The position numbers were made by a program, and so were the translations under genes. A stretch of DNA of 64,000 nt. It comes from Rhodothermales bacterium. GTDB lineage: Bacteria; Bacteroidota; Rhodothermia; Rhodothermales; JAHQVL01. The DNA lies in contig JAWKNW010000002.1 of assembly GCA_041391505.1 (NCBI GenBank), forward strand, positions 166,897 through 230,896, given 5' to 3'. The notes under the pieces are model-generated. The model did no database searches, had not been told where the DNA came from, and saw nothing but the letters and a program-made list of their open reading frames with translations. Shown piece after piece: positions 38,757 through 59,846 of the stretch; the first letter of the stretch is position 1; every line of letters starts with the position of its first letter.

Positions 38757-39887
38757 ATGGCTAATCCAAAGCACCTGGAAATTTTCCAACGAGGAGCTCT
38801 AGAGTGGAATAGCTGGAGAAAAGGTACTGCAGAGTTCCCCGATCTATCCCACCACAGACTGGATGCTAAAGATTACAGTGGATGGGACTTTAACTACTCT
38901 GACCTTTCTTTTATTGACGCGTCAGGGGTTACTTTTGATAAATGCAGTTTTCTGGCGGCAAGACTGTCTGGCGCAAACCTTAGCCATTGCAGCATTATAC
39001 CCACCTCTCTTGTCAACACAAATCTCGAACATTGCGATCTATCGCATGCAATAATAGTTGGCGGCAATTTTCAAGATGCAAAGTTTGAAGACACGATATT
39101 AATAAAGACCAAATTCCAAGAAGGCGTTTGGGCAAGTCCAAATCAAGTAGCAGGCAAAGCTAGTACTGCTTTTATTGATTGCGATCTCAGTAGAGCTCAA
39201 TATCTTGAGACTTGTATTTTTGAAGGAAACGTAATTATTGACAACAGAACTCTTAATCGATCAGTCGATTTATCCACTACCTTCCTTTTAAACGCTGGAC
39301 TTTCAAAGGAAGAGGTCAGAAGTTACTCACACGATGCCTCAATAACGATCATATTCAAAGAGAGTAGCTGGAGAGACTTGGTGCCAATAGAGCACGCGCT
39401 CAGAATCATGGCAATCTATGAGAAGGATTTTGACATCGTCCGATCTGATGATAGGCTCATACTGAAACTGCAGAACCAGAATCAGCTAAATCAAGCACTC
39501 GAAACCATCGGCGCCCTTCTATCGGCACTTCAGGCCTCAAACAGAGATCAATTGTCTTCGATCCGCGTAACGCAAAGAGGATTACCGGATGCGGTCACAT
39601 CAAATGATGAACTCGCCTTTCTCCTCACCTTTTTAATTGACCTATACGAACAGGACAACCATCCGCAAGCTCTACTAGAAGTGGCGGGGAAAGGCATACT
39701 AGAGTCATCTGCGATTGGAAAGTTATTCCAAGGCTTTATTGATTGGACACACTCTCGCCTGAATCCTGACCCTGCCCGCGAAAAGGTCCAACAGATCTAT
39801 AAACGATGCAGAAAATTGTACCCTGAGTTGGACGAATTCAGAAGATTATCGGACTCAAGCACAGATCCAAAGAAACTCAACAGATAG
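38757..39887 (+). CDS. pentapeptide-repeat protein with unknown ~180-aa C-terminal domain (paralog of the 42501 TIR protein)
   Basis: N-terminus LEIFQRGALEWNSWRK followed by A(D/N)LS-type pentapeptide units (LSGANLSHCSI, NLEHCDLSHAII...). The gene is low-GC (about 45% against about 67% in the gene 30 nt upstream, hand counts of 60-nt samples). Confidence 0.8.
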   Translation: MANPKHLEIFQRGALEWNSWRKGTAEFPDLSHHRLDAKDYSGWDFNYSDLSFIDASGVTFDKCSFLAARLSGANLSHCSIIPTSLVNTNLEHCDLSHAIIVGGNFQDAKFEDTILIKTKFQEGVWASPNQVAGKASTAFIDCDLSRAQYLETCIFEGNVIIDNRTLNRSVDLSTTFLLNAGLSKEEVRSYSHDASITIIFKESSWRDLVPIEHALRIMAIYEKDFDIVRSDDRLILKLQNQNQLNQALETIGALLSALQASNRDQLSSIRVTQRGLPDAVTSNDELAFLLTFLIDLYEQDNHPQALLEVAGKGILESSAIGKLFQGFIDWTHSRLNPDPAREKVQQIYKRCRKLYPELDEFRRLSDSSTDPKKLNR

Positions 39888-42500: not shown

Positions 42501-43556
42501 ATGCTACAGGCGATACCAGAACACGTTGAACTCCTCAACAGAGGGCCCGAGGCATGGAATGGCTGGAGACAAAATAATCAGACACAACCAGATCTACGTT
42601 TTACTGATTTGTCTGGACGAGATTTATCCGGATACAATCTTGAAAATGTATATCTCGAAGGCTGCAATCTAACCGAAGCAAGACTTGTTTCCCAGAACCT
42701 ACATCAGTCCCAGTTTCAATCAGCCCAACTTCTTCGGACGGACTTCACCGGCTCAGATCTTTCATATGCAGAGTTCTCACGCGCCTATCTCCATGGAGCC
42801 AAATTGGCTTCATGCAATCTAAATAATGCAGATCTCGAGGGGGCAATATTCTTGTTCAGCGATCTACGAGAATCACATCTTGACAAAGCCAGATTCGGCG
42901 ATACTATCTTATTCTCAAGTGACCTGTCCGGATGCAAAAGTCTCGACTCCATTATCCACTATTCGCCTAGCTCAGTCGACCACGGTACACTAAGTCTCTC
43001 TGGAGCACTGCCGCTGGCCTTTCTCAGAGGCGTGGGATTCCCGGACAATTACATTGATTATATCCCTGCATTATTCCATAACGCAATCCAGTTCTACTCG
43101 TGTTTCATCAGCCACTCAACAGAAGATCACGAGTTCGCGCGAAGACTTTATGCGGACTTACAAGACCAAGGCGTTAGATGCTATTATGCCCCCGTGGACA
43201 TGAAAGGCGGCAAGAAAACTCATGAGCAGATTGACCAAGGCATCAAGATGCACGACAAACTGGTATTAATCCTGAGTCCAGCGAGTATCACAAGCAAGTG
43301 GGTCGAAAGAGAAATACGCCGAGCGAGGCATCAGGAGGAGGAAGACGGAAAGAGACGACTTTTCCCTATTAGCTTAGTGCCATATAAAATGTTAAAAAAC
43401 TGGAAGCTCTTCGACTCTGACCTTGTCTTAGATCTCGCAGCCGAAATTCGCGAATATTACATACCTGATTTCACCGAATGGAAGTCACATGATAAGTACC
43501 ACAATGAATTCCAAAAACTGCTCAGGGACTTAAGACCTGATGAGGAGTCGATTTAA
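42501..43556 (+). CDS. pentapeptide-repeat protein with C-terminal TIR domain
   Basis: N-terminus VELLNRGPEAWNGWRQ followed by pentapeptide units (DLSGRDLSGYNLENVYLEGCNLTEARL...). The C-terminus is FYSCFISHSTEDHEFARRLYADLQDQGVRCYYAPVDMKGGKKTHEQI...LVLILSPASITSKWVEREI, a TIR_2-type core that includes the W..E putative catalytic Glu. Low GC. Confidence 0.85.
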   Translation: MLQAIPEHVELLNRGPEAWNGWRQNNQTQPDLRFTDLSGRDLSGYNLENVYLEGCNLTEARLVSQNLHQSQFQSAQLLRTDFTGSDLSYAEFSRAYLHGAKLASCNLNNADLEGAIFLFSDLRESHLDKARFGDTILFSSDLSGCKSLDSIIHYSPSSVDHGTLSLSGALPLAFLRGVGFPDNYIDYIPALFHNAIQFYSCFISHSTEDHEFARRLYADLQDQGVRCYYAPVDMKGGKKTHEQIDQGIKMHDKLVLILSPASITSKWVEREIRRARHQEEEDGKRRLFPISLVPYKMLKNWKLFDSDLVLDLAAEIREYYIPDFTEWKSHDKYHNEFQKLLRDLRPDEESI

Positions 43557-43798: not shown

Positions 43799-43812
43799 GT
43801 GCCTCCGCAAGG
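43799..43812. repeat. attL-side direct repeat (copy of the tRNA-Lys 3-prime segment)
   Basis: gtgcctccgcaagg is identical to, and in the same orientation as, 59773-59786 inside tRNA-Lys. Flanking bases are partly similar (cag upstream, ct downstream). Confidence 0.6.
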
Positions 43813-44048
43813 GCTTACCCTGATTTACGCACGTCTGCGCCACTCCACACCTGTCCCGCTGAAACCCTTCGAAATCAAGGGCTTGCGGCAACACATCGCC
43901 TCACAGGATCAAATTTCGAAGGTCAATTCCCCGTAGGCTGCGCTCACATTACAGCCTACATTCTTCCACGCAAATATTTTTGGGAACATCCATTTGTTCG
44001 ACAAGGGAACAAGAAACCAATCCTTATAGAACCGCAGCCTTTGAACTT

Positions 44049-45047
44049 ATGTCGAGATTAACTGCAGAGTACTCAATTGACATCCCCAGTCCCTGCCTGA
44101 TACAGTGGCCGATAGATGAGACGCCTACGATTGACGCAACGATAGACGGCTTCTCTGTACGAATTGTACTGCAACCCGTAAAAGACTGGCGATTGACACA
44201 CAAGGAAGAGAACTACTATGTCACTAGCATTGACTCCCTTGAAATATTCGTTTCGCGCGAAGAAAACGAATCACCACCTCCTTCACGATTGAATGCAAAG
44301 GGAGGAACTGATTTTTCAGACCAATACCCTTTTATCAATGAACGTGCGACTCCTTATCGTGACATCGCTGTAAAGGCTGCCAATCGCCTGTTGAATTTCT
44401 ACAAATATCATCTCCATGCCCCATTGATAGAGCCTATTCCGGAGGGACACAATGGCTTTGCAAACCCTAGATGGTTCATCGATGATGACGAACAGATAGC
44501 TGGTAATAAGGTAACCTTCACAGTCGAATATGTAGCAGGGTTACATGGAGAGTTGAGAACGTATAAATTCAGGCCTGCAGATGAGTCTATTCTTCAGAAG
44601 TACCTGACCAATGTGCCGGACCATAGTCTAGCAGATGAGCTCTTGGCCGATGCGAAATCTGCATGGTTCGAGCACAATTATCGGAGAGCCGTGCTCGAAC
44701 TTGCCATTTGCGTGGAAGTCATGGTGAAGCGGAAATATTTTGAGAAGGCCTCACCAGCGGGAGCAGCATTTGATTACCTAGAGGACAAATCACAGATCAG
44801 AGTGCGTGTGTTGGATCTCATTGATAAAATAGCTTCTGAAGCTTTCAATCGCAGTTTCAAGAATGAGCACAAGAATGAATACAATCATATAGATGAGTTA
44901 TTCAGATGTCGCAACAAGATCGCTCATAGAGGAGAGTTGAAGTTTCGAAATGAAGCTGGTCAAACCGTTGAGGCCGATTCCGACATGGTGGCTCTTTGGT
45001 GGGAAGCTGCCTATTGCTTGAAGGACTGGCTCCATGAGTTATCCTAG
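44049..45047 (+). CDS. HEPN-domain protein (Rx4H), putative RNase; N-terminal ~200 aa unknown
   Basis: The C-terminal helical region reads LADELLADAKSAWFEHNYRRAVLELAICVEVMVKR...IDELFRCRNKIAHRGEL, where RNKIAH fits the HEPN Rx4-6H motif. The ATG at 44049 is preferred. Low GC. Confidence 0.55.
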   Translation: MSRLTAEYSIDIPSPCLIQWPIDETPTIDATIDGFSVRIVLQPVKDWRLTHKEENYYVTSIDSLEIFVSREENESPPPSRLNAKGGTDFSDQYPFINERATPYRDIAVKAANRLLNFYKYHLHAPLIEPIPEGHNGFANPRWFIDDDEQIAGNKVTFTVEYVAGLHGELRTYKFRPADESILQKYLTNVPDHSLADELLADAKSAWFEHNYRRAVLELAICVEVMVKRKYFEKASPAGAAFDYLEDKSQIRVRVLDLIDKIASEAFNRSFKNEHKNEYNHIDELFRCRNKIAHRGELKFRNEAGQTVEADSDMVALWWEAAYCLKDWLHELS

Positions 45048-45263
45048 CATTAAACTGGAGCATGTGGAGGCCATGCATCCGGGGAGGGGGGTACAAATCT
45101 CCAGCACTACCAGCCTCGGGACCGGCGGAGGCAGTCAAATTTTTACGCCGTCAGGTTTCCAGAATCGGTTTTCGCGGCCCAGGGCTCCCCCGTGAATCGC
45201 CGTTTTTCGTGCGGCCAGACGCGATCCACGCGATCCGGGGCCGATTCAAAACCACATTTTTTC

Positions 45264-45938
45264 ATGCCAAAACACCCCAAAAACTATATGAAAAAGCAGC
45301 AACTTTCGACCCTCATCCTGGACGTTCGCGAGCATCCGGCCGTCAAAACGGTGATCGATCGCCTGCGCCGGCTGAAGCAGGACATCCAGCGCCTCAACGA
45401 GATGGTGACCGAACGCCAGGCCCGGGCCACCGAGGCCCGCAAGACCCTGGGGCGCCTCGAGCTCGACGCGGCCATGGGGCGCGACGTCGACGCGGCGGCC
45501 CGCCAAGCGGCCATCCGCGACCTGCAGGCGGCCGAGGCCGACCTCGACGTGGTCACCGAGGAGGCCCAGCGCCGGGGCGGCATCTCGGTCGACGTCGCTG
45601 CCGAGATCGGGCCGGCGATCGAGGAGGCCGGCCGGGAGGCCACCGAGCTCCTGGATCCGGTGCTCCGCGCTCTGACCCAGCAGTACACCGACGGCCTGGC
45701 AATGATGGCATCAGCGGGGCGCGATCTCCACGAGATCTACGGCGCGCTCAGTCACAGCATGCAGGCGACCCATCGGAAGTACGGGGTGCACCAGAACATC
45801 CGCACCCCGCACGACACGCCCGTGCTCGCGATTGGCACCCTCGGCTACGAGGGCGTGTTGCAAGTGATGGAGAATCACCTCCGGACGCTGCGCGCGATGG
45901 GGTACACGGCCACCCAGACGGAGGAGAGCCATGTCTGA
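45264..45938 (+). CDS. hypothetical phage-like protein (coiled-coil N-terminus; possible scaffold-like)
   Basis: 224 aa, high GC. The stop overlaps the start of the prohead protease gene (45931). No family recognised. Confidence 0.5.
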   Translation: MPKHPKNYMKKQQLSTLILDVREHPAVKTVIDRLRRLKQDIQRLNEMVTERQARATEARKTLGRLELDAAMGRDVDAAARQAAIRDLQAAEADLDVVTEEAQRRGGISVDVAAEIGPAIEEAGREATELLDPVLRALTQQYTDGLAMMASAGRDLHEIYGALSHSMQATHRKYGVHQNIRTPHDTPVLAIGTLGYEGVLQVMENHLRTLRAMGYTATQTEESHV

Positions 45939-46605
45939 GAAAGACCTCGAACGGCGCTATTATACCGTCCAACTCCGGGGCGGCCGTGGCCAGAAGACGA
46001 TCACTGGCTATGCGGCCGTGTTCAACGAGCGGAGCCAGGACCTGGGCGGCTTCATGGAGGTGATCCGCCCGGGCGCCTTCCGCCAGGCGATCCTGACGTC
46101 CGACGTCCGCGCGTTGTGGAATCACGACCAGAAGCTGGTCCTGGGGCGCACGAAGGCGGGCACCCTGAAGCTGGCCGAGGACGATCGCGGTCTCCGCATC
46201 GAGCTCGTGCCGCCGGAGAGCCCGATCGGCCAGAACGCGGTCGAGGCCATCGGCCGGGGCGATGTCGATCAGATGTCCTTCGCGTTCTCGGTGGGTAAGG
46301 ATGCCTGGACGAGCCTCGAGGACGGCCGCCAGCTGCGCGAGATCCTGAGCATCAAGCAGCTCTTCGACGTCTCGCCGGTCACGTTTCCCGCATACGCCCA
46401 GACCGACGTCTCCGTCTCTGTACGCAACTTGATGCGGCGCATCCAGACCGATCCCGCGTACGCGGAGCGACTGCGGCGCCTCGAGGCGGCGGAGCGCGGC
46501 AGCGCCTGGGACGGAGCGCCGCGCCGGCCGGCGATGTCGGACGCGCAGAAGATAGCGCAGATGCGGCGCCGGCTCGCCCTGGCCGAGCGCGGCATCGACC
46601 TTTGA
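45931..46605 (+). CDS. HK97-family phage prohead protease
   Basis: ITGYAAVFNERSQDLGGFMEVIRPGAFRQAI....VRALWNHDQKLVLGRT..GTLKL.EDDRGL...GDVDQMSFAF...DVSPVTFPAY, the Peptidase_S78/U35 pattern. Confidence 0.8.
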   Translation: MSEKDLERRYYTVQLRGGRGQKTITGYAAVFNERSQDLGGFMEVIRPGAFRQAILTSDVRALWNHDQKLVLGRTKAGTLKLAEDDRGLRIELVPPESPIGQNAVEAIGRGDVDQMSFAFSVGKDAWTSLEDGRQLREILSIKQLFDVSPVTFPAYAQTDVSVSVRNLMRRIQTDPAYAERLRRLEAAERGSAWDGAPRRPAMSDAQKIAQMRRRLALAERGIDL

Positions 46606-47114
46606 CGGAGACAACCATGGGAAGACGAGGCCCGGCGCCGAAGCCGACGAAACTCAAACTTCTGCAGGGGACGTACCGGAAGGACCGCGCGAACACGAAC
46701 GAGCCGGAGCCCGAGGCGGCCGTGCCCAAGTGCCCCTCCTTTCTCAAGGGCGAGGCGCGCCGGGAATGGCGCCGGATCGTGCCCGAGCTGCAGGAGATGG
46801 GTCTACTCTCCCGGATCGATCGCGCGGCGCTGTGCGGCTATTGCGCGAGTTGGGAGACCCTGGTGGAATCAGACAAGGTGATCAGCGCCGAGGGCAGGAC
46901 GATCGTGAACGCGAAGGGCCAACTTGTTGCGCACCCGGAGATGGCCATCCGGAGCCGAGCGATGGACCAACTGCGCGGCTACATGGTCGAGTTCGGGATG
47001 ACGCCGGCGAGCCGGGCGCGGATCCACGTGCCGGAAAAGGGCAATCTCGCGAATCCGTTCGCCGACATCCTGAAGGACGCGGACGAGAAGGGTCCGGGGC
47101 CGGAGGCGCGATGA
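46602..47114 (+). CDS. phage terminase small subunit, P27 family
   Basis: GRRGPAPKPTKLKLLQGTYRKDR...P.FL...AR.EW.RIVPEL..MGLLSRIDRAAL..YC..W.......I...G........G....P......R....QLR.Y..EFGMTPASR matches the P27 TerS family. Confidence 0.8.
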   Translation: MTETTMGRRGPAPKPTKLKLLQGTYRKDRANTNEPEPEAAVPKCPSFLKGEARREWRRIVPELQEMGLLSRIDRAALCGYCASWETLVESDKVISAEGRTIVNAKGQLVAHPEMAIRSRAMDQLRGYMVEFGMTPASRARIHVPEKGNLANPFADILKDADEKGPGPEAR

Positions 47115-47584
47115 TTTACAGGTTCGGGGCGCCGGAGGCGGTCTACCGCGCGGTGGAGGACATGGCCTGGTGGGTGACGCTCGATCTGGGGCTGAGAGAG
47201 GCGGGCGATCCGCTCCCGATTCCGATTGCGTTCTGGAAGCGGGAGCGGATCGCCGACGTCGTGCGGAGGCAAGGGGGACAAGGCAAGGGAACGATCGGGC
47301 TCTACTGGCCCGACGAGGACCGGATAACGATCTGCGACGACCTCACCCCACGGGAGGCGGCCACGGTCACGGCGCACGAGCTGCGGCATGCCTGGCAGTA
47401 TCGGCACTGGAACGCGGTGTCGATCGCGGAGACGAGCGCGATCGAGCGCGACGCGCGGGCCTACGAGAGGCAGGCTGTGGGGCGATTCTACCAGGCGGAG
47501 CACCGCGAGAAGCCGGCTACAATCTGGTCGAGAGTGTGCGATTGGATGGTGGCGGCCCCTCAGATAGTCAACCTAATCCCCTAA
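47111..47584 (+). CDS. HExxH-motif protein (putative zinc metallopeptidase), coupled to terS
   Basis: 157 aa. TAHELRHAWQY contains HExxH. The ATG at 47111 overlaps the terS stop (ATGA). Confidence 0.5.
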   Translation: MIYRFGAPEAVYRAVEDMAWWVTLDLGLREAGDPLPIPIAFWKRERIADVVRRQGGQGKGTIGLYWPDEDRITICDDLTPREAATVTAHELRHAWQYRHWNAVSIAETSAIERDARAYERQAVGRFYQAEHREKPATIWSRVCDWMVAAPQIVNLIP

Positions 47585-48245
47585 CCATGGTCGAAGATAG
47601 CGGACAAAGGACTACAAGCAGCTTAATCACCTCCCGCAATAGCACGCCACAACTCTCCCCGTACCTCACTGCATCGATTAGAACTGCTGCAGCAAGTTGA
47701 AAAAGAGTTAGATGGAACATGATCATCATCCATGTCGCTTTTCGAGGTCGCTCATTCTTGAGTGCTTCGAAGTATTCATGCCTGAAATCAGCCAGGGCCG
47801 GGTCGAAGGCAAGCACGCGTGTTTTTTCGGGGAGTAGAAAATTTGCTATGCGCCATGCCAACTGACCAGGGGGCTTATGCAGGCGTTTCGGCTCCGTGGT
47901 CGATGGTTGCCCACTAGCCGAGATGCGGAACGATGCGGCATAGTGATCTAGAGAATAGAGGAAGAAAGCCTTAAACCCCTGGGACCGCTCAGGAAGGTTA
48001 TCCTTTTCGAGCTCATGAGCCAGTTCCGCGCGCATCTCAACCAAGCCCGTGAGTACAGGCCTGATAGGATCAAACTCTTCAAGGGTCATTTTCCCGCTGC
48101 TGTAGAGGGCGTATGCATCAAATGCACACACAAGAGCTCTTGATACGAACTCATCATCGTTGTCGATGCATGACAGCGAAGGGTCCTGATTAGTGAGTGA
48201 GCCGATTTCGGCAATCAGTTCTTCCTTTGAGGGCAGTGTCTTCAT
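47568..48245 (-). CDS. hypothetical 225-aa protein with C-terminal TM segment(s), PadR-coupled
   Basis: The ATG at 48245 overlaps the PadR stop (ATGA). The segment LLPEKTRVLAFDPALADFRHEYFEA followed by the hydrophobic WMMIMFHLTLFQLAAAVLI resembles the prefix domain often encoded after PadR genes. Low GC. Confidence 0.5.
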   Translation of the reverse strand: MKTLPSKEELIAEIGSLTNQDPSLSCIDNDDEFVSRALVCAFDAYALYSSGKMTLEEFDPIRPVLTGLVEMRAELAHELEKDNLPERSQGFKAFFLYSLDHYAASFRISASGQPSTTEPKRLHKPPGQLAWRIANFLLPEKTRVLAFDPALADFRHEYFEALKNERPRKATWMMIMFHLTLFQLAAAVLIDAVRYGESCGVLLREVIKLLVVLCPLSSTMVRGLG

Positions 48246-48544
48246 AGTCCGGCAAAGTGAGCGTTCAGCGCCTGAAGTGATGCCATCCAGTGAGTTAAAA
48301 CGCGTGAACCGTCGGCAGTCAGCTGGTAAAGACGTCGTGCTGGACCCATCTCTCCTGGTTTCGATTCAGCCAACCAAGAACGGACAAACCCTTTTTTCTC
48401 AAGACGACTCAATGTGACATAGATAGTACCACGCTTTAGATGTCCCCCAGAATCATCGACAAGTTCCAGACCGTAAGCTTTCTGCTTTGTCGTAAGTAGC
48501 TGAAGGATGATAGCCTCTTTAGGGCTGAGTGAATGTGATTTCAT
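48242..48544 (-). CDS. PadR-family transcriptional regulator
   Basis: MKSHSLSPKEAIILQLLTTKQKAYGLELVDDSGGHLKRGTIYVTLSRLEKKGFVRSW......GPARRLYQLTADG, the winged-helix PadR pattern. The ATG at 48544 is preferred. Confidence 0.8.
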   Translation of the reverse strand: MKSHSLSPKEAIILQLLTTKQKAYGLELVDDSGGHLKRGTIYVTLSRLEKKGFVRSWLAESKPGEMGPARRLYQLTADGSRVLTHWMASLQALNAHFAGL

Positions 48545-48731
48545 GGCGGCGTTGACTCGTTTCGGGATAAGGGTAATATATCTTATTTTGTAAGACATGT
48601 CAAGAGGCAATAGTCCTCCAACACTGACACGCTGAAAAAATGCCCGTCGGGCGGGCTAACGTCAAAGGCGCATCTGGTGTATCTTGGTGATAAGTACCTC
48701 AACAGGGTGAATTACAATTGCCGAGCGAACA

Positions 48732-49535
48732 ATGAAGCTGCATAAGTGGGAAGAGGAAATCTTCTTCAGCACCGTCCGCATAACAATCGAAGACAGTCAT
48801 GGAGAAGATCTTTCGGTCGGCACCGGCTTCATTATGGGCGTCCCGATCACAAATGAGAAGGGCGACGATAAAGATACTGTCGTGCTCGTTTCCTGCCGGC
48901 ATGTCTTTGAAGAAGCCAATAAGCCGATCAGCCTTAAATTTCACCAGGCGAAGCCAGACAAGAGTGGCCCGCAACTCGGCAGCACACCCATACCTCTAAC
49001 CGAGAATTTCGGCGACCACTATTTGCCTCACCCGAACCCCAAAATAGATCTCGCTTGCATAGGTGCCGTTGGCTTGCGATTCCGCGATGACATCTTTTTT
49101 CGATACGTCGGCCCCGGCATCTTGGCAGACCTCACAGAAGATGATATCTATGCGGGCAAAGAGGTGTTGTTCGTTGGTTATCCGGATGGGCAGTATGATT
49201 GGAGCCACAATCTCCCCATCATGAGGTTTGGACACATCGCGACAGTACCAAGCGTCGATTTTCGTGGCGAGCAGGCCTTTCTAATTGATGCACCAGTGTT
49301 TGAAGGATCGAGTGGCAGCGCTGTCTTTAGCATCATCGACGGCAAATATAGGCTCGTTGGTGTAGTGACCGATACGCTGTTCAAGGAGGACAAAGACCGA
49401 TCCAGCGGCCTAAATATCTCATACAGACATTACCTGCACTTGGGGCTGGTACTAAAGTCGACTCTGATCTATGAGTTGCTTGAACATCTCGTGAAAGAGC
49501 AATTTCCTGGCTTTAGTCTCGGAGTTCCGAGATAA
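48732..49535 (+). CDS. cytoplasmic trypsin-like serine protease (Trypsin_2/S1-like)
   Basis: No signal peptide. Candidate triad: His in VLVSCRHVF, Asp in KIDLACIG, Ser in FEGSSGSAVF. GTGFIMG is an N-terminal beta-barrel motif. It is divergent from the PadR operon. Low GC. Confidence 0.7.
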   Translation: MKLHKWEEEIFFSTVRITIEDSHGEDLSVGTGFIMGVPITNEKGDDKDTVVLVSCRHVFEEANKPISLKFHQAKPDKSGPQLGSTPIPLTENFGDHYLPHPNPKIDLACIGAVGLRFRDDIFFRYVGPGILADLTEDDIYAGKEVLFVGYPDGQYDWSHNLPIMRFGHIATVPSVDFRGEQAFLIDAPVFEGSSGSAVFSIIDGKYRLVGVVTDTLFKEDKDRSSGLNISYRHYLHLGLVLKSTLIYELLEHLVKEQFPGFSLGVPR

Positions 49536-49628
49536 AGATCATGGTCTATTTTTGAGTTCTTCGCTGAAGGTCGCGGGGCTTTTTCGTTCGGACACACTCG
49601 AAAGTGGGGCCATACGGTCATGATGCCG

Positions 49629-50282
49629 TTAAGACGGTCGCCTTACTCCATGACCCTTTCCGTTATCCCAAATCAACCCGTCACGGATATCGATCAAACT
49701 ATTCATGTTTTCCTCCTGCACTGTACGCAGAAGCGCGAAGGTGCGCACTTTGGCTCCGGGATAGACTTGCTTGATGAGGCGAGCACACGCTAAAAGGGTG
49801 CTTCCTCTGGTCACGATATCGTCAACGATCGTGATCGAATCGGAGAAGAGCAGTGTCTCGAGGACAGACATGGTCTCCATATGGGACGCAACCGTTGGCC
49901 GTTCATCTCCCCTGCCCTTCGCAAATGAGGAAGATTTGGGGACTGCATAATCCCTTTTCAGGAGCAGGAGCATCTCGGATCCGACGCCATTTTCAATGAG
50001 CGCCTGGCAGAGTAGTTTTGCTGGCCAGACTGTGTCATCGGAAATGAGCGGAGTACTGCGAGGTACAGGTACGAGCACCGTGCCGGCGTGCAGAAACGTG
50101 CTCAGCGGTGGCTCGTGAATATGTTTCCGAATCGATTGGGCAACGATTCTCAGCTCCTCTATTTTTCCAAACTTGACCGCACTCATCGCCTTGCGCGATC
50201 GCTCAATAAGATATGATTCTCCCCTCGGGGAATAAGCCAGATATGACGCGTATTCAATGCTAGAGCGAGAACGGTTCTGCAT
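49629..50282 (-). CDS. ComF-like phosphoribosyltransferase-domain protein (ShosT-like)
   Basis: SITIVDDIVTRGSTLLA is the PRPP-binding loop of type I PRTases, and VLVPVPRS is a ComF-family motif. It overlaps the upstream DprA-like gene by 23 nt. Confidence 0.7.
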   Translation of the reverse strand: MQNRSRSSIEYASYLAYSPRGESYLIERSRKAMSAVKFGKIEELRIVAQSIRKHIHEPPLSTFLHAGTVLVPVPRSTPLISDDTVWPAKLLCQALIENGVGSEMLLLLKRDYAVPKSSSFAKGRGDERPTVASHMETMSVLETLLFSDSITIVDDIVTRGSTLLACARLIKQVYPGAKVRTFALLRTVQEENMNSLIDIRDGLIWDNGKGHGVRRPS

Positions 50283-50943
50283 CGGTTCGCTCCGGCATCT
50301 CGGCTAGAATGTGGTCCATGTTGCCCCTGGAGAGCATGATCGCGCCGTACTTCATCATCTCCTTCGGCCAGTTCAATTCAGGGTTGGTCAGGACGGACTC
50401 CATTATGAGGAGCTGGCGGCCAAGCCTGAGTGTCTCTTTGGCCTGGTGAAGTGTGCCGCTGTTCTCCGTTGCCTCGACAATGACGGTCGCATCGGTCAAA
50501 AGCGACATCGTCAGATTTCGCATCGGGAAATTGGACCGCTTCATCGGATATCCGATCGGGAACTGAGAAACCGCCAGGTGATCGCGCATGATGCGCTCCT
50601 GTAATGATCGATTCTTAGGCGGATAGAATTCGTCCAGCGGAGTGCCAAGAACAGCTATCGTATTCCCTCCCTCACTGATCGCGGTCTCGTGTGCTGCAGT
50701 ATCAATCCCCTCCGCCAGACCACTCACCACGGTGATTCCGTGACGGACGAGTGCCTTGGTGACGAGTTCGGCGCGCTTTAGCCCTTCGGGTGTCGCCTTC
50801 CTGGAGCCAACAACGGAAATCCGAGATCCTCTCCTACACAGATCGATATCGCCCGCAGCATACAGCACAGTGAGCTGGCGCTTTGACTCCTCCTTATTGA
50901 GTGTCCCCAGCAACTCAGCGATCGTGAATTCCATCGTTTCCAT
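50260..50943 (-). CDS. DprA/Smf-like Rossmann (SLOG) protein (ShosA-like)
   Basis: ISVVGSRKATPEGLKRAELVTKALVRHGITVVSGLAEGIDTAAHETAISEGGNTIAVLGTPLDEFYPPKNRSLQERI is the DprA core signature. There are no C-terminal DprA winged-helix or N-terminal SAM extensions (227 aa). Confidence 0.8.
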   Translation of the reverse strand: METMEFTIAELLGTLNKEESKRQLTVLYAAGDIDLCRRGSRISVVGSRKATPEGLKRAELVTKALVRHGITVVSGLAEGIDTAAHETAISEGGNTIAVLGTPLDEFYPPKNRSLQERIMRDHLAVSQFPIGYPMKRSNFPMRNLTMSLLTDATVIVEATENSGTLHQAKETLRLGRQLLIMESVLTNPELNWPKEMMKYGAIMLSRGNMDHILAEMPERTDAEPFSL

Positions 50944-51335
50944 CGTCGTGCACCAGAAGTAGATTTCTTGTGTCGGTCATTGAGAGGAGCGGGCTCCTGG
51001 TGGTCTCAATGGCCTGTGGAGAGCAAGGATCAAGCTCCTGCACGGCAGTGCCAACCATATGTCATACATATATTTGACGTATGGCACATGTTTTTGTTAC
51101 CGGGGTAATATCGTCCATCGATTGATTGGAATACAGGGGGCGGATGCCTTGATTTTGTGAAGTGTTCAATTTGCGCCAAAGGTTGATTCCGCCGTGTGAA
51201 CATGCCGGCCGGGCCGTCGCGCACATACGTGTTTGCGCGCGAACATAGTCAGCCCATTGATGCCGGCAGCCAGGTTTCGGGGTCGCGTCCACAATAACGG
51301 CACATTGACAATCTCGTCCGATTCACCGTGCACAT

Positions 51336-51373
51336 CGGAAAAAGCAAAAGCGCGCCGAACCTCGCCGGCGCGC
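51336..51373 (-). terminator. rho-independent terminator ending the five-gene minus-strand operon
   Basis: gcgcgccg (51350-57), 8-nt loop, cggcgcgc (51366-73). On the minus strand it is followed by cttttgcttttt. It lies 19 nt after the stop at 51392. Confidence 0.6.
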
Positions 51374-51391
51374 CCTTGCGCTGAATCGGAT

Positions 51392-51592
51392 TCACCCATT
51401 GCACGCACATCCAGCTCCTGTCCTGCAGATCGTATCCTTGTCGATGCATGAGTCTCCGCAGGCCTTCCCCTTGCGGCAGACTTTGCAGCATGCACCTCCC
51501 TCCAAGGTATCGCAAGCAGGAAGTACACTCATGGACGCGAAAGCAATCAGGAGGAATGCCCCGATCCTGATGCATGATTTGACTTTGCGCAT
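51392..51592 (-). CDS. small Cys-rich lipoprotein (66 aa)
   Basis: MRKVKSCIRIGAFLLIAFASMSVLPAC lipobox, then GGACCKVCRKGKACGDSCIDKDTICRTGAGCACNG (8 Cys in about 31 residues). Confidence 0.6.
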   Translation of the reverse strand: MRKVKSCIRIGAFLLIAFASMSVLPACDTLEGGACCKVCRKGKACGDSCIDKDTICRTGAGCACNG

Positions 51593-51679
51593 GACGCTCT
51601 CCCAACGTGGACGGCAACATGCGCTGTTGACCACCTTTCTCGTCGTCGCGTGAGTGCCGGCGCCCGAAAAGGCGCATTC

Positions 51680-52006
51680 CTACTTCCGCTTCTTCCGTGC
51701 CCGGTAGGCCGCCTGGCGGCAGGCATCGGAGCAGTACCTCCCCTGCCCCGCTGGATTCGAGCACTTCACCCAGGCGCACACCTTGCGATCGTTCGGAGCG
51801 TACGTGCCCGCCCGCTTTCTCTCCGCGTCCGCCAGGCGCCGGCATTCGGCGTGATACCGCTTCTGCTTGCCCGTGAGCGGCTGGCCGCACCGGACGCATG
51901 GATAGGCTGTCGTACGCTTGCCAGCCCGGGCCGGCGGCGCGGCCACGACGGCTGCGGATCCTTGGGACTTACGGGCCCCCTCTTCAGGGCTCCCCTGCCC
52001 CATCAC
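51680..52006 (-). CDS. zinc-ribbon-like basic protein (108 aa)
   Basis: CVRCGQPL...YHAECRR and CAWVKCSNP...YCSDACRQAAYRARKKRK. The start overlaps the upstream gene stop (ATGA). Confidence 0.5.
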   Translation of the reverse strand: MMGQGSPEEGARKSQGSAAVVAAPPARAGKRTTAYPCVRCGQPLTGKQKRYHAECRRLADAERKRAGTYAPNDRKVCAWVKCSNPAGQGRYCSDACRQAAYRARKKRK

Positions 52007-52791
52007 TCCCCCGGCTCACCCGGCGTGACGTCGATGACGCTGTGATCGATCTCCCCGCCCTTGCTTCCACTATCGCCCGAATGCGGCGGCAGCTGGAGCG
52101 ATCCGAGGCCGAACCACTTCGATGTCAGCTTCGCCGCGCGCTCTACCGGCACACCGATGGACTTGAGCAGATACGGAAGCTCGATGCGCGCCGACTTCTT
52201 GAGCAGACTCCGAGTCCGGCGCGCCATCGACTCCTTCCAGAGCAGATCCATCCGCTGGTGCTGCACGTGCGCCTTGAGCCGGCGGATGTTGCGCCGGTTG
52301 TCGAGCGCCAGCTGCTTCCTGTCCACGACCTCGAGGCGGCCCTCCACCTCCGTCATGTGCTCGGCGCCCGTAGCCTTCCGATCGGCGTTCGTGATCGGAT
52401 CCACGGCCTGGATGAGGAACGCGAAGAGGAACATGCACGGTGCCGACGTCGGCATGATCCAGGCATAGTAGGTGGAGGTCCACCCCCCTGCCCCGCCCTG
52501 CGCCTGAGCAAGGATGCCGGCCGTCGCGAAGAACATGGCGAACAGCCCGGCCCAGAGCGAGACCCGAAGCATCGGGCCGATCAGGCGTCCGTCCTTCCAG
52601 TGCTGGTATACCGCCCAGAGCATGAGCTCCACCGAGAGGATACCGACCAGCACGAAGACGAAGAAGACGACGTTGCCGCTGTGAGTGAAGGCGTTCACCG
52701 TGTTGTGTGCGCCGGAGTACAGGAGGAACAGCAGATGGATCTTATCCAGCGCCGGCATCTCCCGGTTAAGTGTTGCTTTTTCCTGTGACAT
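52003..52791 (-). CDS. hypothetical membrane protein (4-5 TM N-terminal, coiled-coil C-terminal)
   Basis: 262 aa with hydrophobic segments (IHLLFLLYSGAH, VVFFVFVLVGILSVELMLWAV, VSLWAGLFAMFFATAGIL, CMFLFAFLIQAV), then a charged helical region. Confidence 0.55.
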   Translation of the reverse strand: MSQEKATLNREMPALDKIHLLFLLYSGAHNTVNAFTHSGNVVFFVFVLVGILSVELMLWAVYQHWKDGRLIGPMLRVSLWAGLFAMFFATAGILAQAQGGAGGWTSTYYAWIMPTSAPCMFLFAFLIQAVDPITNADRKATGAEHMTEVEGRLEVVDRKQLALDNRRNIRRLKAHVQHQRMDLLWKESMARRTRSLLKKSARIELPYLLKSIGVPVERAAKLTSKWFGLGSLQLPPHSGDSGSKGGEIDHSVIDVTPGEPGE

Positions 52792-52894
52792 GCTTCGAAA
52801 TGTGTTACAGTTTTCTTAGGTGTCGGGAAACTGTCACGCCTGGGCGCCATGGGGCGGGACGCGCAGGCGTTACGGTCGACATCGGGAAGGGGAG

Positions 52895-53371
52895 TCAGGA
52901 GTTGGAGGCGGCAGCGGCGAGCGCCGGCGATGCGGGCGCCATGCCGGCGGCCGAGTAGGGCGCCGCGCGCTCCTCGTAGCGATCGAAGAGCCAGGAGCCG
53001 GCGGCCGTAAGCTGCTCGTAGAGCGAGCGCTGGTAGCGGATCGTCCGGTTCTCGCAGAAGGCGACACGCGAGCCATCGTAAACGACGTGCTTGGTCCACT
53101 CGTGGGCGATGCCTTCGTAGCCCGGGCCGGCGATGCGGTGCACGTTGTCCGCATCCCCGGGGAGCCGGACCTTGAGGGGCTCGAGCTCGCGGTACATATT
53201 GGCTTCGACCATCATGCTGCGCTGATCTTCGACGATCACGTGATCCGGGTGCTCGGTGACGCGGCGTTCATGGATGCAGCCTTCGTAGCCCGGGCCGAAA
53301 AACTTGAGGAGCGGCTTTTCGTTGAGCCGGCGGACGATGGGGGCGGACGGGGTGTGCTTGATCGATTTCAT
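52895..53371 (-). CDS. hypothetical 158-aa protein with duplicated GPGYEG motif
   Basis: FFGPGYEGCIHERRV and IAGPGYEGIAHEWTK suggest an internal duplication. No family recognised. Confidence 0.45.
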   Translation of the reverse strand: MKSIKHTPSAPIVRRLNEKPLLKFFGPGYEGCIHERRVTEHPDHVIVEDQRSMMVEANMYRELEPLKVRLPGDADNVHRIAGPGYEGIAHEWTKHVVYDGSRVAFCENRTIRYQRSLYEQLTAAGSWLFDRYEERAAPYSAAGMAPASPALAAAASNS

Positions 53372-53417
53372 ATCGGGATACCTGTCGGAATTCGGGACGT
53401 GGAAGAGGGAGGGCGGC

Positions 53418-53792
53418 TCAGCGGCCGACGTGGATGGTGTGGCGGTAGCGGCCTGGCGTCATGCCGGCGGCGCGGGCCTGGGGGTCGCGCTCGAGCGGCT
53501 GGAGGCGAGCTGGGCGGACATAGACCGGGCGGCCCTTCGCCACGACGCGCTCGACGCGGGAGAGGGGGAGCCAGAGCACGCGGCCGGCGCCGGCGTCCCA
53601 GATGGCCAGGGCATCGCGCGTCGCCTGGCCGGCCGGAAGGCAGGCGAGGGAGGAGGCGAGCGGATCGTAGTACGCCAGGAGCCGGCGGAGCCGTGTGGCG
53701 TGCCTCACGTAGAGGACGAGCAGGGTGTAGGGAGCTGCTGCGATCGCGGCGAATACCGGCAGGGCAACAGGCGAGAAGGAGATGCGTTGCAT
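53418..53792 (-). CDS. hypothetical 124-aa protein with N-terminal TM segment
   Basis: The ATG at 53792 is preceded by GGAG 6 nt upstream. MQRISFSPVALPVFAAIAAAPYTLLVLYV. Confidence 0.45.
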   Translation of the reverse strand: MQRISFSPVALPVFAAIAAAPYTLLVLYVRHATRLRRLLAYYDPLASSLACLPAGQATRDALAIWDAGAGRVLWLPLSRVERVVAKGRPVYVRPARLQPLERDPQARAAGMTPGRYRHTIHVGR

Positions 53793-53905
53793 GAAGGTCT
53801 CCAAGTTGGGTTAACAGCTTGATTGGGGACAATTGGCCGTTCGGTGTTCTCAGCACCGGGCGGCCTTTTTCGTTTGAATGCCGTATTATACCAGGATTTT
53901 CTTTA

Positions 53906-53928
53906 CTTGTCAAGAATTACTTGACAAG
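53906..53928. promoter_or_regulatory. perfect 9-bp inverted repeat (candidate operator) in the divergent switch region
   Basis: cttgtcaag, aatta, cttgacaag. It contains TTGACA and lies 35 nt upstream of the XRE ATG (53963) and about 115 nt from the divergent minus-strand operon start. Confidence 0.5.
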
Positions 53929-53962
53929 AGTACAAGATAATTTTAACTTGGTATCAATTTTC

Positions 53963-54253
53963 ATGGACGGACCCTTTCAGCTAGTCTCTGGCGAACTCAT
54001 GGACAGCAAGACGATGGCGCAAATGTGCCGAACGCTCCGAGCGATCAAGAAGTGGACGCAGGAGCAAGTGGCGGATCACCTGGAATCTCGATTGGAGAGA
54101 AAGGTGAGCAAGCAGAGTATTTCTTATGCGGAGAACCCGGAATACCCAGGGCTTGATAAGCTTCGCGTGCAGATCATAGAGGAATTGAGCGGGCGGCAAG
54201 TTGAGGGGCCATTCTGGCGACTCAAGGATGAGCCGGCGGAGGTGGAGGGATGA
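53963..54253 (+). CDS. XRE-family helix-turn-helix regulator
   Basis: LRAIKKWTQEQVADHLESRLERKVSKQSISYAENPE is an HTH_3-like pattern. 96 aa. Confidence 0.65.
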   Translation: MDGPFQLVSGELMDSKTMAQMCRTLRAIKKWTQEQVADHLESRLERKVSKQSISYAENPEYPGLDKLRVQIIEELSGRQVEGPFWRLKDEPAEVEG

Positions 54254-55026
54254 AGCCGATCAAGCACGTGCCCGCCCAGGTGCCACGATCGCTCGGCATT
54301 GTGAATCCGGACGATGTCGATGATCTCTGGCAAGCAGGAGGTCCGCCCGGCACGATCGTGAAGGCCTTTGATGCGCGCATCGAATCGGTCTGGGATCAAT
54401 ACGTCGAGATGGCGAAGACTCGCGGCGTCATGGAGCTCCAGTCGGCGCGCGAAGTCTTGATCCGTTGGCGGGCCCAGCTCGAGAAGGATTTCTGGGAATA
54501 CCAGGAATACGATCCGTACGTCCTCGAAACGAACGCGAAGGAAAGGGCTCGCGATGGGGCGGAAGAACCCTCTGAAGCTCAGAGGCGGCTGGAAGAGTAC
54601 CGGGCGGGCCTGTACGAAAAAGCACTCGTCGGATACAAGGAGACCGAATTCCGGTTGAGCGTCCTGGAGAATGTGCTCTGGCGCCTGATCATGTTCGGCC
54701 AGCTGGAGCCCTATGGCCGTGTCGACAAGAAAACACGGCGGGTGATAGCGAGCGACGATGCCGCGAAGGCGAGCCAGGGGGAGAAGGTGGAGTGGGTACG
54801 GGCCTATATCGAGTCGAATCCGCTACTGTTGAACATCTCCACGAATGCGGACCTGTTCCGGGCGACGGCCAAGTTCAAGGACCTAGGTATCGATGAGAGC
54901 ACGATCCCGAAGGGCGTGAGGGGATACTTCAAATCGATAGGCCATCCGATGCCCAGGACACCCTCGAAATTCAAGCAATATTTCGGTATTCAGCCAAGCG
55001 AGGACAGGAAAATTCGGGAAAATTAG
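54250..55026 (+). CDS. hypothetical 258-aa protein (island regulatory/replication module)
   Basis: The ATG overlaps the XRE stop (ATGA). Charged helical protein, no family recognised. Confidence 0.55.
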   Translation: MKPIKHVPAQVPRSLGIVNPDDVDDLWQAGGPPGTIVKAFDARIESVWDQYVEMAKTRGVMELQSAREVLIRWRAQLEKDFWEYQEYDPYVLETNAKERARDGAEEPSEAQRRLEEYRAGLYEKALVGYKETEFRLSVLENVLWRLIMFGQLEPYGRVDKKTRRVIASDDAAKASQGEKVEWVRAYIESNPLLLNISTNADLFRATAKFKDLGIDESTIPKGVRGYFKSIGHPMPRTPSKFKQYFGIQPSEDRKIREN

Positions 55027-55102
55027 GGATTTCCCGTTTCGTCCTGTGCTGAACCGAGAAAGCGTGCCTAGCTTGTTTCGCAACGAACAAACCAAAGGAC
55101 AG

Positions 55103-55297
55103 ATGGAACGCCGAAAACCACGTAGAAAATACTCATATCACCTGGGCGTGCGACTCACCCGGGACATCGAGGAAGCGCTGGCCGCCGAGGCAAACGCGCG
55201 CGGGCTGGACATGTCGGAAGTAGTCCGAGACCTGCTCAAGAAGGAGCTGATCGAGAGCCGGAGCCAGACGCATCGTCTGGCTGAGTTGGCGCAATGA
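55103..55297 (+). CDS. ribbon-helix-helix (CopG/Arc-like) protein
   Basis: YSYHLGVRLTRDIEEALAAEANARGLDMSEVVRDLLKKEL fits beta-alpha-alpha RHH. 64 aa. Confidence 0.6.
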   Translation: MERRKPRRKYSYHLGVRLTRDIEEALAAEANARGLDMSEVVRDLLKKELIESRSQTHRLAELAQ

Positions 55298-55417
55298 AGA
55301 AGGCCCGCGCCGGCGGCAACCGGTTCGGGCCAGATGTCGATTGAGCTACCTTTTTCATGAAAGAAATCGGGCCGACTGCCCTGAAAAGACGTCGGCCCGA
55401 AAAAGCAAAATCAACAG

Positions 55418-57295
55418 ATGAAATGTAAGCCAGAACCGTCAAAAAAACAACTTCACCTCAACGCCGGTGCAAGGCGGGCCATCCTTCGACTCTTAGCGGG
55501 GCAGGCACCGAACGGAACGCGACCCGATAGCTGCGGCGACTACGCCGAGCTCGTCAGGCAAGTTTACGACGCATACGAATTGGGCGGATCCGATCCGGCG
55601 CGCGACGTCATCGAGCTGGCAGCTGTATCGGATGACACGCTTTTGCGGCTGATGATGGAGGCCGAGCAACTCGCGGAAGCCGAGAGCCTTCGAGATGACT
55701 TGCCGACACTACCGGCCGCCGCTTTCGAGAAATTGCCTGCGATTATCAGCGAATGCTGCGAGAATCTCGACAGGTGGTTCGAGCGAGATGCGTTTCTAAC
55801 CGGAGCATTAGGCACGATCAGTTCCCTTCTCCCCAAGGTCCGATTTCGGTACGGGAAAAAACTGTACAGCGCTCATTTGTTTTTTTTCGTTCTGGCGGAG
55901 GCAGGAAGGGGGAAGGGTGTGCTGACACATTCTCTCGCTCTAGCCGATCTGGTTGACGAATACCTAGTGAGCTGTAGTGACCGTGCGAAGAGCGAGTGGG
56001 ACGAGGCCGTCCGAGCATACGATACAGCGAAGCGCTCAAAGCGACTTGCACTCACCGACCCAGATCCACCAGGCCCGAAACCGCCTGAGCTCCTTCTCCG
56101 AGCGGCGGAGGACACCAATCTTCCTGTTCTGTACCAAAACCTGGCAGCGAATCGCGAGGGCATCCTGATCGGCGCGACGGAGGCAGATATCCTGAGTCAA
56201 GCAAACAAAAGGGGCGACTTCGGCGGCTTCAGCGCGCTTTTCCGGCAAGCTTTTGAGCATGAACGCGCCCAGAAAGCAACAAAAACGGAAGGCACGGTCA
56301 GGGTACATGAGCCACGCATAGCGCTGGTGCTGTCTGGAACCCGCGACCAATTCGCCCCACTGGTGGAGAGTGTCGAAAACGGGCTGTTTTCGAGATTCGC
56401 AGTGTACCGGTTCTCAGCGCCCCTGGAGTATCGATCGCAGCGGCCGCGCCCGGAGGATGTCGCCTTCGTGAAGGCCATCGAGAAGGCGAAGGAGCGGCTC
56501 CTGGCTTTGTACAAGATCCTGGCGACGAGAGAAGAGCCGCTCTATGTGGACATGCCGGCGGCGCGATGGGAGAAAATTGACCAGGCATTCCAGCAGCTCT
56601 TCAATTCAACACTTCGCGACGCGGGGGCGCCCGGTGAACTGGCCGCATCAATATTTAGAGGTGTCGTCATCGCCTTCCGGATCGCAACGATCCTGACGGT
56701 ACTCAGACGCTTTGAGGAGGGTATTCCGCTGGAACGTGTGGCCTCACTGGAGGTGGGGCAGCAAGATGCGGAAGCGGCAACAGCCCTCGCGTTCGTTTAC
56801 GTCGAGCAGGCCATGCGCCAGGCGCTTGATATGCTTCAAAGCCGAGACGCAGACAACGTACTCTCAGCGATCGCCGAGTCCGCAGGATCCGGCCGGCTTA
56901 CCGGCCAGCAACAGTCCCTACTGCAGATGCTACCGGACGAATTTGGCAGGAAGGAAGCCGTAGAAGTTGGGCGAACTCTGGGGGCCGGAACGAGGAGTGT
57001 GGACAGGTGGATTCGTGCGTGGTCAGAAGGCCCGGACGCACTACTCGTCCGCCAGAGGCATGGGGGGTATGTCAAAAGTGGCAATATCGTCAATTCCTGC
57101 GATTCTGAGCCAATTTCGCAGAATAGCGCAGAAATACCCCGTGGCATAAGTGGCAATATTGCCACTTATGAAATTGAGCAAAAACCCTCAAATCGGGCTG
57201 ATTTGGGGGAATATGACGGTTTTGCCGATTTTGCCACAGGTGGTGCCCCTTCCCTGGACGCAGACAATAAGGAGGGTGAAAAATGTCCGTTTTGA
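55418..57295 (+). CDS. large replication-associated protein (DUF3987-like; primase/helicase-associated family of mobile elements)
   Basis: 625 aa. Its position between the regulators and the integrase is that of satellite/ICE replication proteins. FFFVLAEAGRGKGVLTH and IALVLSGT resemble DUF3987 as I remember it. No canonical Walker A was seen. Confidence 0.4.
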   Translation: MKCKPEPSKKQLHLNAGARRAILRLLAGQAPNGTRPDSCGDYAELVRQVYDAYELGGSDPARDVIELAAVSDDTLLRLMMEAEQLAEAESLRDDLPTLPAAAFEKLPAIISECCENLDRWFERDAFLTGALGTISSLLPKVRFRYGKKLYSAHLFFFVLAEAGRGKGVLTHSLALADLVDEYLVSCSDRAKSEWDEAVRAYDTAKRSKRLALTDPDPPGPKPPELLLRAAEDTNLPVLYQNLAANREGILIGATEADILSQANKRGDFGGFSALFRQAFEHERAQKATKTEGTVRVHEPRIALVLSGTRDQFAPLVESVENGLFSRFAVYRFSAPLEYRSQRPRPEDVAFVKAIEKAKERLLALYKILATREEPLYVDMPAARWEKIDQAFQQLFNSTLRDAGAPGELAASIFRGVVIAFRIATILTVLRRFEEGIPLERVASLEVGQQDAEAATALAFVYVEQAMRQALDMLQSRDADNVLSAIAESAGSGRLTGQQQSLLQMLPDEFGRKEAVEVGRTLGAGTRSVDRWIRAWSEGPDALLVRQRHGGYVKSGNIVNSCDSEPISQNSAEIPRGISGNIATYEIEQKPSNRADLGEYDGFADFATGGAPSLDADNKEGEKCPF

Positions 57296-58017: not shown

Positions 58018-58027
58018 GGGGGCGTCA

Positions 58028-59770: not shown

Positions 59771-59846
<76 letters not shown>

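Follow-up and report, generated by a model that had tools for sequence, protein, structure and literature searches.

The 64,000-nucleotide (nt) stretch of DNA analyzed here (the window) comes from a Rhodothermales bacterium (assembly GCA_041391505.1, contig JAWKNW010000002.1, positions 166,897 to 230,896 of the forward strand) and carries, beside a Shosta defense system, a gene for a trypsin-fold serine protease and, diverging from it, a gene pair for a PadR-family repressor and a partner protein. The protease (267 amino acids [aa]) is encoded at 48732 to 49535 on the plus strand, and the PadR-family winged-helix repressor (100 aa; 48242 to 48544) and its partner (225 aa; 47568 to 48245) are encoded on the minus strand. 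The TGA stop codon of padR and the ATG start codon of the partner gene overlap as cTATGAag (ATGA; the minus strand reads GGACTATGAAGACA), and the divergent spacer between padR and the protease gene spans 187 nt (48545 to 48731). GC content is 46 to 56% over approximately 47.5 to 51.4 kb, compared to 65 to 70% in the flanks. An initial annotation had read the three genes as one regulated, protease-based module. Its open reading frame (ORF) positions and lengths, the ATGA overlap, and the 187-nt divergent spacer all stood when the ORFs were rechecked, as did the low-GC block beside a DprA/phosphoribosyltransferase (PRTase) pair, which proved to be ShosA/ShosT. The single module did not survive the comparison across genomes. 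We consider it probable that the interval holds two independent units, a stand-alone protease and an autorepressed PadR-partner pair, lying side by side with Shosta in a low-GC hotspot.

Profile, ordered catalytic triad, and a predicted double β-barrel chymotrypsin fold place the protease in the Trypsin_2 family of the PA clan. It matched PF13365 (Trypsin_2) at 33.1 bits (cut-off, 27.6; E = 1.1e-7), and the His/Asp/Ser triad picked out in the initial annotation, H57 (SCRHVF), D106 (IDLACI), and S194 (GSSGSAVF), was invariant in 15 of 15 homologs. An AlphaFold2 (AF2) model of the protein scored a predicted local distance difference test (pLDDT) value of 87.5 and a predicted template modeling score of 0.87, and a Foldseek search with this model returned DegQ/DegS at the top (probability, 1.00), with thrombin and others also matched. 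The best structural matches thus come from the HtrA family (DegS, DegQ, and DegP; Foldseek E ~4e-8, template modeling score ~0.5), which shares the chymotrypsin fold and the triad. Unlike HtrA proteins, however, the window protease has neither signal peptide nor PDZ domain, shows ~17% identity to them, and has a patchy, mobile distribution that does not fit housekeeping orthology. Hydropathy analysis detected no signal peptide or transmembrane segment in the window protein (maximum Kyte-Doolittle value over 19 residues [KD19], 1.17), and the N terminus is acidic; the same held for all 15 homologs, in agreement with what had been noticed from the window sequence. As no hydrophobic N terminus or transmembrane segment is present and residues 5 to 20 sit within the fold in the AF2 model, a cytoplasmic location, judged by this hydropathy test, is well supported. 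A terminator-like hairpin followed by a T-run was found by consensus scan on the plus strand at 49559 to 49578, 24 nt past the protease stop codon.

The initial annotation could map these genes to no named system, a statement that is now outdated for the protease. The protein matched the PADLOC candidate family PDC-S45 (model PDLC05022) at E = 1.8e-43 and 146.5 bits over profile positions 11 to 216 of 293 (70%), a match called without applying PADLOC's own coverage cut-offs. Weaker PADLOC matches were obtained to LmuA (1.2e-7) and RT-Protease_XI (4.6e-6), and PHROG 7688 was matched at 3.6e-32. The PDC candidates were proposed because their genes lie within BREX, DISARM, or type I restriction-modification (R-M) systems, and the 145 candidates listed as untested include S45 (10.1101/2024.01.29.577857); according to a 2026 survey, validation of most PDCs is still pending. 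The one mention of PDC-S45 that we found in the literature is a report of a PADLOC match in Sinorhizobium prophages. The window protease resembles PDC-S45 in its strong hidden Markov model (HMM) match, in being a single gene without a conserved partner, and in the prophage and plasmid settings of its family, perhaps also in the R-M settings, which come in part from nonindependent loci. It differs in that the PADLOC profile leaves its C-terminal ~60 residues unaligned and in that its gene lies between the PadR-partner cassette and Shosta rather than embedded in an R-M, BREX, or DISARM system. The significant but weak domain similarity to the Lamassu LmuA protease and to the class XI reverse transcriptase-protease of the UG/Abi group links it to other cytoplasmic trypsin-fold proteases of conflict systems. 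In those systems a sensor, either SMC-like LmuB/C or a reverse transcriptase, accompanies the protease as a fusion or as a partner, whereas the window protein is a bare protease domain.

If protease and cassette belonged together, their homologs should be found together elsewhere. Protease homologs were collected from 80 genome loci, 80 IMG/VR viral or prophage loci (89 matches), and 19 matching plasmid records, the genome loci coming from phyla as diverse as Poribacteria, Chloroflexota, the Candidate Phyla Radiation, Firmicutes, and Proteobacteria, along with a Nitrosotenuis archaeon. Linkage searches covered 164 protease loci (1.89 Mb; 9,346 ORFs), taking in 6 to 8 kb around each protease gene. 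Searches by tblastn of these loci with the window PadR, the 225-aa partner, and ShosT gave 0 matches. HMMs of the partner module and of the cassette PadRs (the latter built from six sequences, and able to detect a divergent second PadR in locus L090) likewise gave 0 matches among the 9,346 ORFs. ShosA matched in 1 of the 164 loci, and a link between protease and Shosta was rejected on this count. That one locus is a prophage contig (L155), in which a protease homolog at 6001 to 6594 (33% identity) lies ~2 kb from a ShosA-like gene at 8560 to 9078 (50% identity), the two being convergent as in the window.

No neighbor of the protease was conserved across 159 loci. In a first set, 534 neighbors fell into 439 clusters, of which the biggest covered six loci of one lineage, and in a larger set 857 neighbors fell into 653 clusters, the largest of which were made up of serine recombinases and of phage tail-like proteins. 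Among 147 immediate neighbors, the commonest Pfam and PADLOC families were R-M methylases, helicases, type ISP systems (4 loci), resolvases, and HNH proteins, and PadR was not among the 25 families listed. Type III R-M genes stood on both sides of the protease-family gene in six Poribacteria loci, which are not phylogenetically independent. In four of these (L017, L025, L028, and L031), the protease homolog lies directly between two type III R-M genes (~850 and ~620 to 660 aa), and the same R-M gene families occur in L030 and L036; the arrangement in the four is a literal case of the embedding by which the PDC candidates were defined. On small Acinetobacter and Moraxella plasmids the protease gene stands alone, adjoining a recombinase (resolvase) or transposase gene. 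The closest relative of the window protease (P0002; 68% aa identity) has different flanks: nucleotide homology to the window is restricted to 48732 to 49364, inside the ORF, and begins at the protease ATG, the upstream gene there being an unrelated 198-aa ORF. A relative at 51% identity, on an 8.1-Mb contig, has no PadR gene nearby. A distant subclade (28 to 30% identity) in Nitrosomonas, Acidiphilium, and the Nitrobacter plasmid NC_007959 (L075 to L079 and L095) has the protease gene at the end of a conserved set of four, the others encoding a CbbQ/NorQ AAA+ protein, a NorD-like von Willebrand factor A (vWA) protein (~785 aa), and a ~210-aa protein matching a bacterial microcompartment (BMC) domain; this set looks like a MoxR-vWA-type system that reuses the same protease fold.

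This distribution bears directly on what the protease might do. It could serve a mobile element in ways other than defense, through protein processing, counterdefense, or superinfection exclusion, or it could be a neutral passenger. Members of the family are found frequently in prophages and viral contigs, the family has a PHROG of its own, and it occurs on plasmids beside recombinases; PDC-S45 members are untested by the account of their own source, and the CbbQ/NorQ-NorD(vWA)-BMC-like set indicates that the fold is reused elsewhere. Against such an accessory role, the element in the window already encodes its own S78 prohead protease, the gene sits in the low-GC cargo block and not in the conserved backbone, the domain is most similar to the defense-associated PDC-S45, LmuA, and reverse transcriptase-protease, and the family is often adjacent to or embedded in R-M systems. 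On balance, we regard a non-defense role as unlikely. The suggestion that the protease is defense-type cargo lying beside defense genes held up only as guilt by association. For the stand-alone protease we propose that it would act as a latent effector or sensor, engaged directly by a phage-derived or perturbed host protein at infection. Once engaged, it could cleave phage proteins or essential host proteins, and phage production would be blocked by direct interference or by abortive infection.

The other unit is a pair in which both members are conserved. The PadR assignment made at first sight was confirmed by a match to PF03551 at E = 5.9e-12 and 45.8 bits (cut-off, 27). The 225-aa partner had no match in Pfam, NCBIfam, PADLOC, or PHROGs, and a word-index homolog search recovered only the protein itself. 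Exhaustive HMMER searching yielded 219 distant relatives, all of which match residues ~105 to 190 only. Of the HMM and structure searches that the initial annotation had suggested for this protein, the former therefore brought relatives to light, but no known family or fold emerged from Pfam, NCBIfam, or the Protein Data Bank (PDB): Foldseek of the 225-aa model against the PDB gave nothing meaningful, and a module profile against the PDB gave chance matches only. The relatives and the AF2 model delimit a conserved C-terminal helical module of ~80 aa, encoded at about 47646 to 47885 on the minus strand, with the consensus PPGxxLxxxAxFLxSxKTxxxVFxPxxADxQxEYFEALxxGRxxKARWxRVRY and with predicted helices at residues 128 to 137, 140 to 163, and 167 to 194 (pLDDT, >90). 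The C-terminal hydrophobic segment seen at the outset corresponds to the last of these helices (residues 172 to 190; KD19, 1.94). The N-terminal ~105 aa of the window partner are unique to it, and the N-terminal regions are unrelated between members, many of which carry an extra transmembrane helix.

Gene context could be read in 11 distinct informative cassette loci (L082, L083, L085 to L090, L092, L178, and L179). A padR gene lies directly upstream of the module gene on the same strand in 10 of them, the exception being L179, in which the module is an 80-aa remnant. A 4-nt overlap like that in the window joins the padR stop codon to the longest module ORF in 3 of these 10 loci. The window PadR is 51% identical to that of L083, and by sequence the cassette PadRs form one dedicated subfamily found upstream of the partner module. 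Together, the PadR and partner constitute a conserved and previously undescribed family, absent from Pfam and NCBIfam. Two of 30 module members have a LuxR or sigma70_r4 helix-turn-helix (HTH) domain fused N-terminally to the module, a Rosetta-stone pattern that points to an interaction between HTH proteins and the module. In L092/L093 (3875 to 5782), the module stands at the N terminus of a protein of ~600 aa that also has a Clp_N domain, a transmembrane helix, and a probable extracytoplasmic β-propeller, which suggests a transmembrane sensor version of the PadR-partner pair. From these fusions and the Clp_N-transmembrane-propeller architecture, the module seems to cooperate with an HTH protein at the membrane or close to it.

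The upstream region of the pair suggests how it may be regulated. A consensus scan identified a sigma-70-like promoter for the PadR-partner operon (TTGACA-17-TATATT; 11 of 12 matches) at 48575 to 48603 on the minus strand. Within its spacer, at 48581 to 48595, a custom scan and cross-locus comparison revealed the palindrome TCTTA-N5-TAAGA, which occurs once in the 64 kb against an expectation of 0.04. Promoter elements (TTGACA and -10) are also present upstream of padR in L082, L083, L085, L086, and L088, and these five loci share the order of promoter and then a TCTTAC-N5-GTAAGA palindrome, 28 to 46 nt upstream of the PadR gene. We take the window palindrome as a putative PadR operator for autorepression. 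No related palindrome was found near the protease gene in the window scan, and an Rfam scan of 47 to 51.5 kb gave no matches. The consensus scan also found a terminator-like GC hairpin with a T-run on the minus strand (48642 to 48656), in the interval from the PadR promoter to the protease start codon. The hairpin lies between the divergent genes and thus appears to part them into separate transcription units, provided that it functions as its sequence suggests.

It is at this point that the three-gene module can be weighed. Under that hypothesis the genes form one regulated protease defense or abortive-infection system, in which, for example, a phage-triggered protease cleaves PadR or its partner and so derepresses a membrane effector, or in which PadR controls the protease promoter. 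The genes are indeed adjacent and divergent within one low-GC block beside Shosta, and the cassette occurs near defense genes elsewhere (TIR/PDC-S66 in L083, a type I R-M system in L178). Latent effectors activated by proteases are, moreover, an established design in defense systems (PMC12642450, PMC12799240), and the window shares with those trypsin-MBL and nuclease-protease modules a trypsin-like protease in an antiviral context. Such modules need an adjacent, coevolving latent effector and a sensor, however, neither of which is linked to the window protease family, and Pfam searches of the window genes did not find the effectors of the known modules (metallo-β-lactamase [MBL], α/β-hydrolase, Pepco, and EACC1). 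No PadR gene or module relative lies within 6 to 8 kb of the protease homologs, and the sole operator-like palindrome belongs to the PadR promoter. From the cassette side the picture is the same, with no related cytoplasmic protease at any of the 11 other loci. An S8 subtilase encoded at L086 was considered as a possible cassette-protease link and rejected, because it carries a signal peptide and is thus secreted rather than a related cytoplasmic protease. The initial annotation had proposed a co-occurrence analysis and had named protease homologs unlinked to PadR/transmembrane genes as a result that would speak against its module; the homologs are unlinked in the 164 loci, and the three-gene reading therefore fails on its own terms. 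We regard it as very improbable. The fallback offered alongside it, a stand-alone protease effector with PadR regulating its partner only, is supported by the linkage data and by the promoter and palindrome.

Several observations nevertheless weigh against the picture of two independent units. The window palindrome differs from those of the other cassettes: its spacer is 2 bp shorter, and it lies inside the promoter spacer, whereas theirs follow the -10 element. The divergent protease promoter lies 137 to 150 nt away, and PadR could also affect it through local co-option. The six-sequence HMM limits how firmly a PadR gene near the protease homologs can be excluded by profile. Many relatives have a less hydrophobic module helix (KD, 1.1 to 1.8), which makes membrane insertion of the partner uncertain. 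The defensive role of the protease is argued from its neighbors, and one lineage (Poribacteria), whose loci are not independent, accounts for part of the adjacency to R-M genes. Finally, neither a sensor nor an inhibitor is visible for this bare protease, and its activation step is thereby left unexplained.

Taking the PadR-partner pair as its own unit, we propose that PadR would repress its own operon through the TCTTA-N5-TAAGA palindrome within the promoter and that the membrane-associated partner may bind PadR and adjust its activity to a signal that the partner's variable N-terminal region senses, a scheme analogous to those of HAAS-PadR dyads and anti-sigma/sigma pairs. The HAAS-PadR-like winged HTH dyads, proposed as a one-step alternative to two-component signaling (PMC11237479), likewise consist of a stand-alone PadR beside an α-helical partner tied to membrane or sensor domains. 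Adjacency to a stand-alone PadR, which characterizes these dyads, was found in the window as well as in the 10 loci with an upstream padR. The HAAS core has three helices, the kinked third of which carries GxP; three helices are predicted for the partner too, but PPG precedes helix 1 and no GxP is conserved in helix 3, which places the partner neither clearly inside nor clearly outside this description. The conserved motif of the partner (PPG...ADxQxEYFEAL...KARW) is not the HAAS one, and the window-type module is C-terminal in most members. The 225-aa query had no Pfam match at E<=0.01, hence none to DUF1700, DUF1129, or DUF1048; for the 30 module members at E<=1, these three families were not among the matches listed (the best 25 of 40). 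PDB entry 2O3L (DUF1048) was recovered neither by the module profile against the PDB nor by Foldseek of the partner model. Membership in HAAS was not adopted, there being no sequence or fold match by Pfam, PDB profile, or Foldseek (a comparison that did not extend to profile-profile methods), and we regard the pair as analogous to a HAAS-PadR dyad rather than as a member. A BlaI/BlaR1 pair is a poorer description: the window PadR matches Penicillinase_R weakly (3e-4, below cut-off) and the partner, which in such pairs is a membrane protein with an M56 peptidase or sensor domain, has no Pfam domain.

Alternatively, the cassette could be a small conflict module of the abortive-infection or addiction type, in which PadR holds a membrane-damaging partner repressed until infection or loss of the element, and not a signaling pair that governs an external regulon. 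The sole operator-like site in the 64 kb is the cassette's own promoter, so that the partner is the only visible output, and the hydrophobic C-terminal helix of the window protein and the variable N termini of the family would suit such an effector. The settings are also of a defense or mobile kind in the window, in L083 (TIR), in L178 (type I R-M), and in L085, where the cassette lies near a NikA-like gene. The LuxR/sigma70 HTH and Clp_N-transmembrane-propeller fusions, on the other hand, point to a regulatory transducer and not a toxin, and conservation falls on charged or aromatic residues (D, E, Y, K, and W), as for a protein-protein interface. IMG/VR viral contigs yielded no cassette, and only about 4 of the 11 loci have defense-type neighbors (including TIR/PDC-S66 in L083 and a complete type I R-M system in L178), a sample too small for enrichment. 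We therefore find this possibility doubtful. It and the non-defense protease are alternative functions for the units and are compatible with their independence. A bolder and equally improbable proposal is that the cassette represents a new class of mobile conflict or signaling module, a PadR with a non-HAAS helical, membrane-associated transducer or effector that lodges preferentially in defense islands (beside Shosta and PDC-S45 in the window, among TIR/PDC-S66 genes in L083, and next to type I R-M in L178), senses infection or envelope perturbation, and is perhaps co-opted in this element to gate the protease.

A pentapeptide-repeat plus TIR protein provides a further point of contact between the window and L083. 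The window copy (351 aa; 42501 to 43556, plus strand; low GC) matches PADLOC PDC-S66 at 5.3e-16 and is ThsB-like; it lies just outside a putative att site. Over its full length it is 40% identical to a pentapeptide-TIR protein encoded at 499 to 1572 in L083, 1.1 kb upstream of the cassette. With two co-occurrences only, this may reflect shared hotspot cargo or chance.

On the other side of the protease, the DprA/PRTase pair is, by its profile matches, a Shosta defense system. ShosT (PRTase; 49629 to 50282, minus strand) matched PADLOC at 1.9e-19 and Pfam Pribosyltran, and ShosA (DprA-like; 50260 to 50943, minus strand) matched PADLOC at 7.7e-73 and Pfam DNA_processg_A at 5e-53; the two ORFs overlap by 23 nt. 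The Shosta, protease, and PadR-partner genes lie within a putative ~16-kb integrative satellite-like element at a tRNA-Lys(CTT) gene (43799 to 59846), recognized from its genes and a repeat. The tRNA-Lys gene (59771 to 59846) forms one end, and the 14-nt tRNA 3' end, GTGCCTCCGCAAGG at 59773 to 59786, is repeated exactly at 43799 to 43812, which we tentatively take as the distal att site (chance expectation, about 0.05). Element genes include an integrase (58345 to 59694), a DUF3987 protein (55418 to 57295), a small terminase, the S78 prohead protease, and a DUF6782 protein; no capsid or portal gene was recognizable among them. The DUF6782 gene (a putative metallopeptidase; 47126 to 47584, plus strand), which is high in GC and appears to belong to the element backbone, is convergent with the 225-aa ORF, the last 17 nt of which it overlaps. 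No related satellites were found in IMG/VR by way of this backbone protein. A further cargo effector may be encoded at the left end of the element by a low-GC ORF of 355 aa (43980 to 45047, plus strand), for which PADLOC and PHROGs gave no match and the only similarity was to RiboL-PSP HEPN, at a weak E = 0.0027 that falls below the cut-off. High-GC, host-like genes (for a 3-keto-disaccharide hydrolase and a HAD hydrolase) lie between the element and a second low-GC island (GC, 0.44), in which a pentapeptide-repeat protein of 376 aa is encoded (38757 to 39887, plus strand).

The analysis thus removes a false lead, in that the apparent PadR-transmembrane protein-protease "operon" is best read as juxtaposed hotspot cargo and not as a system, and in this framing the finding is mostly an ordinary one. 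The protease becomes a new member of the cataloged candidate family PDC-S45, for which the comparison adds evidence of a single-gene family carried by prophages, plasmids, and R-M islands. If it does act alone in defense, a cytoplasmic trypsin-fold protease of this kind would be mechanistically informative on how such enzymes are kept latent and triggered. The newer part, and the one most worth following up, is the PadR-partner pair. Defined by a motif in the partner, by a PadR subfamily of its own, and by a candidate operator, it would extend PadR-based one-step signaling pairs beyond HAAS.

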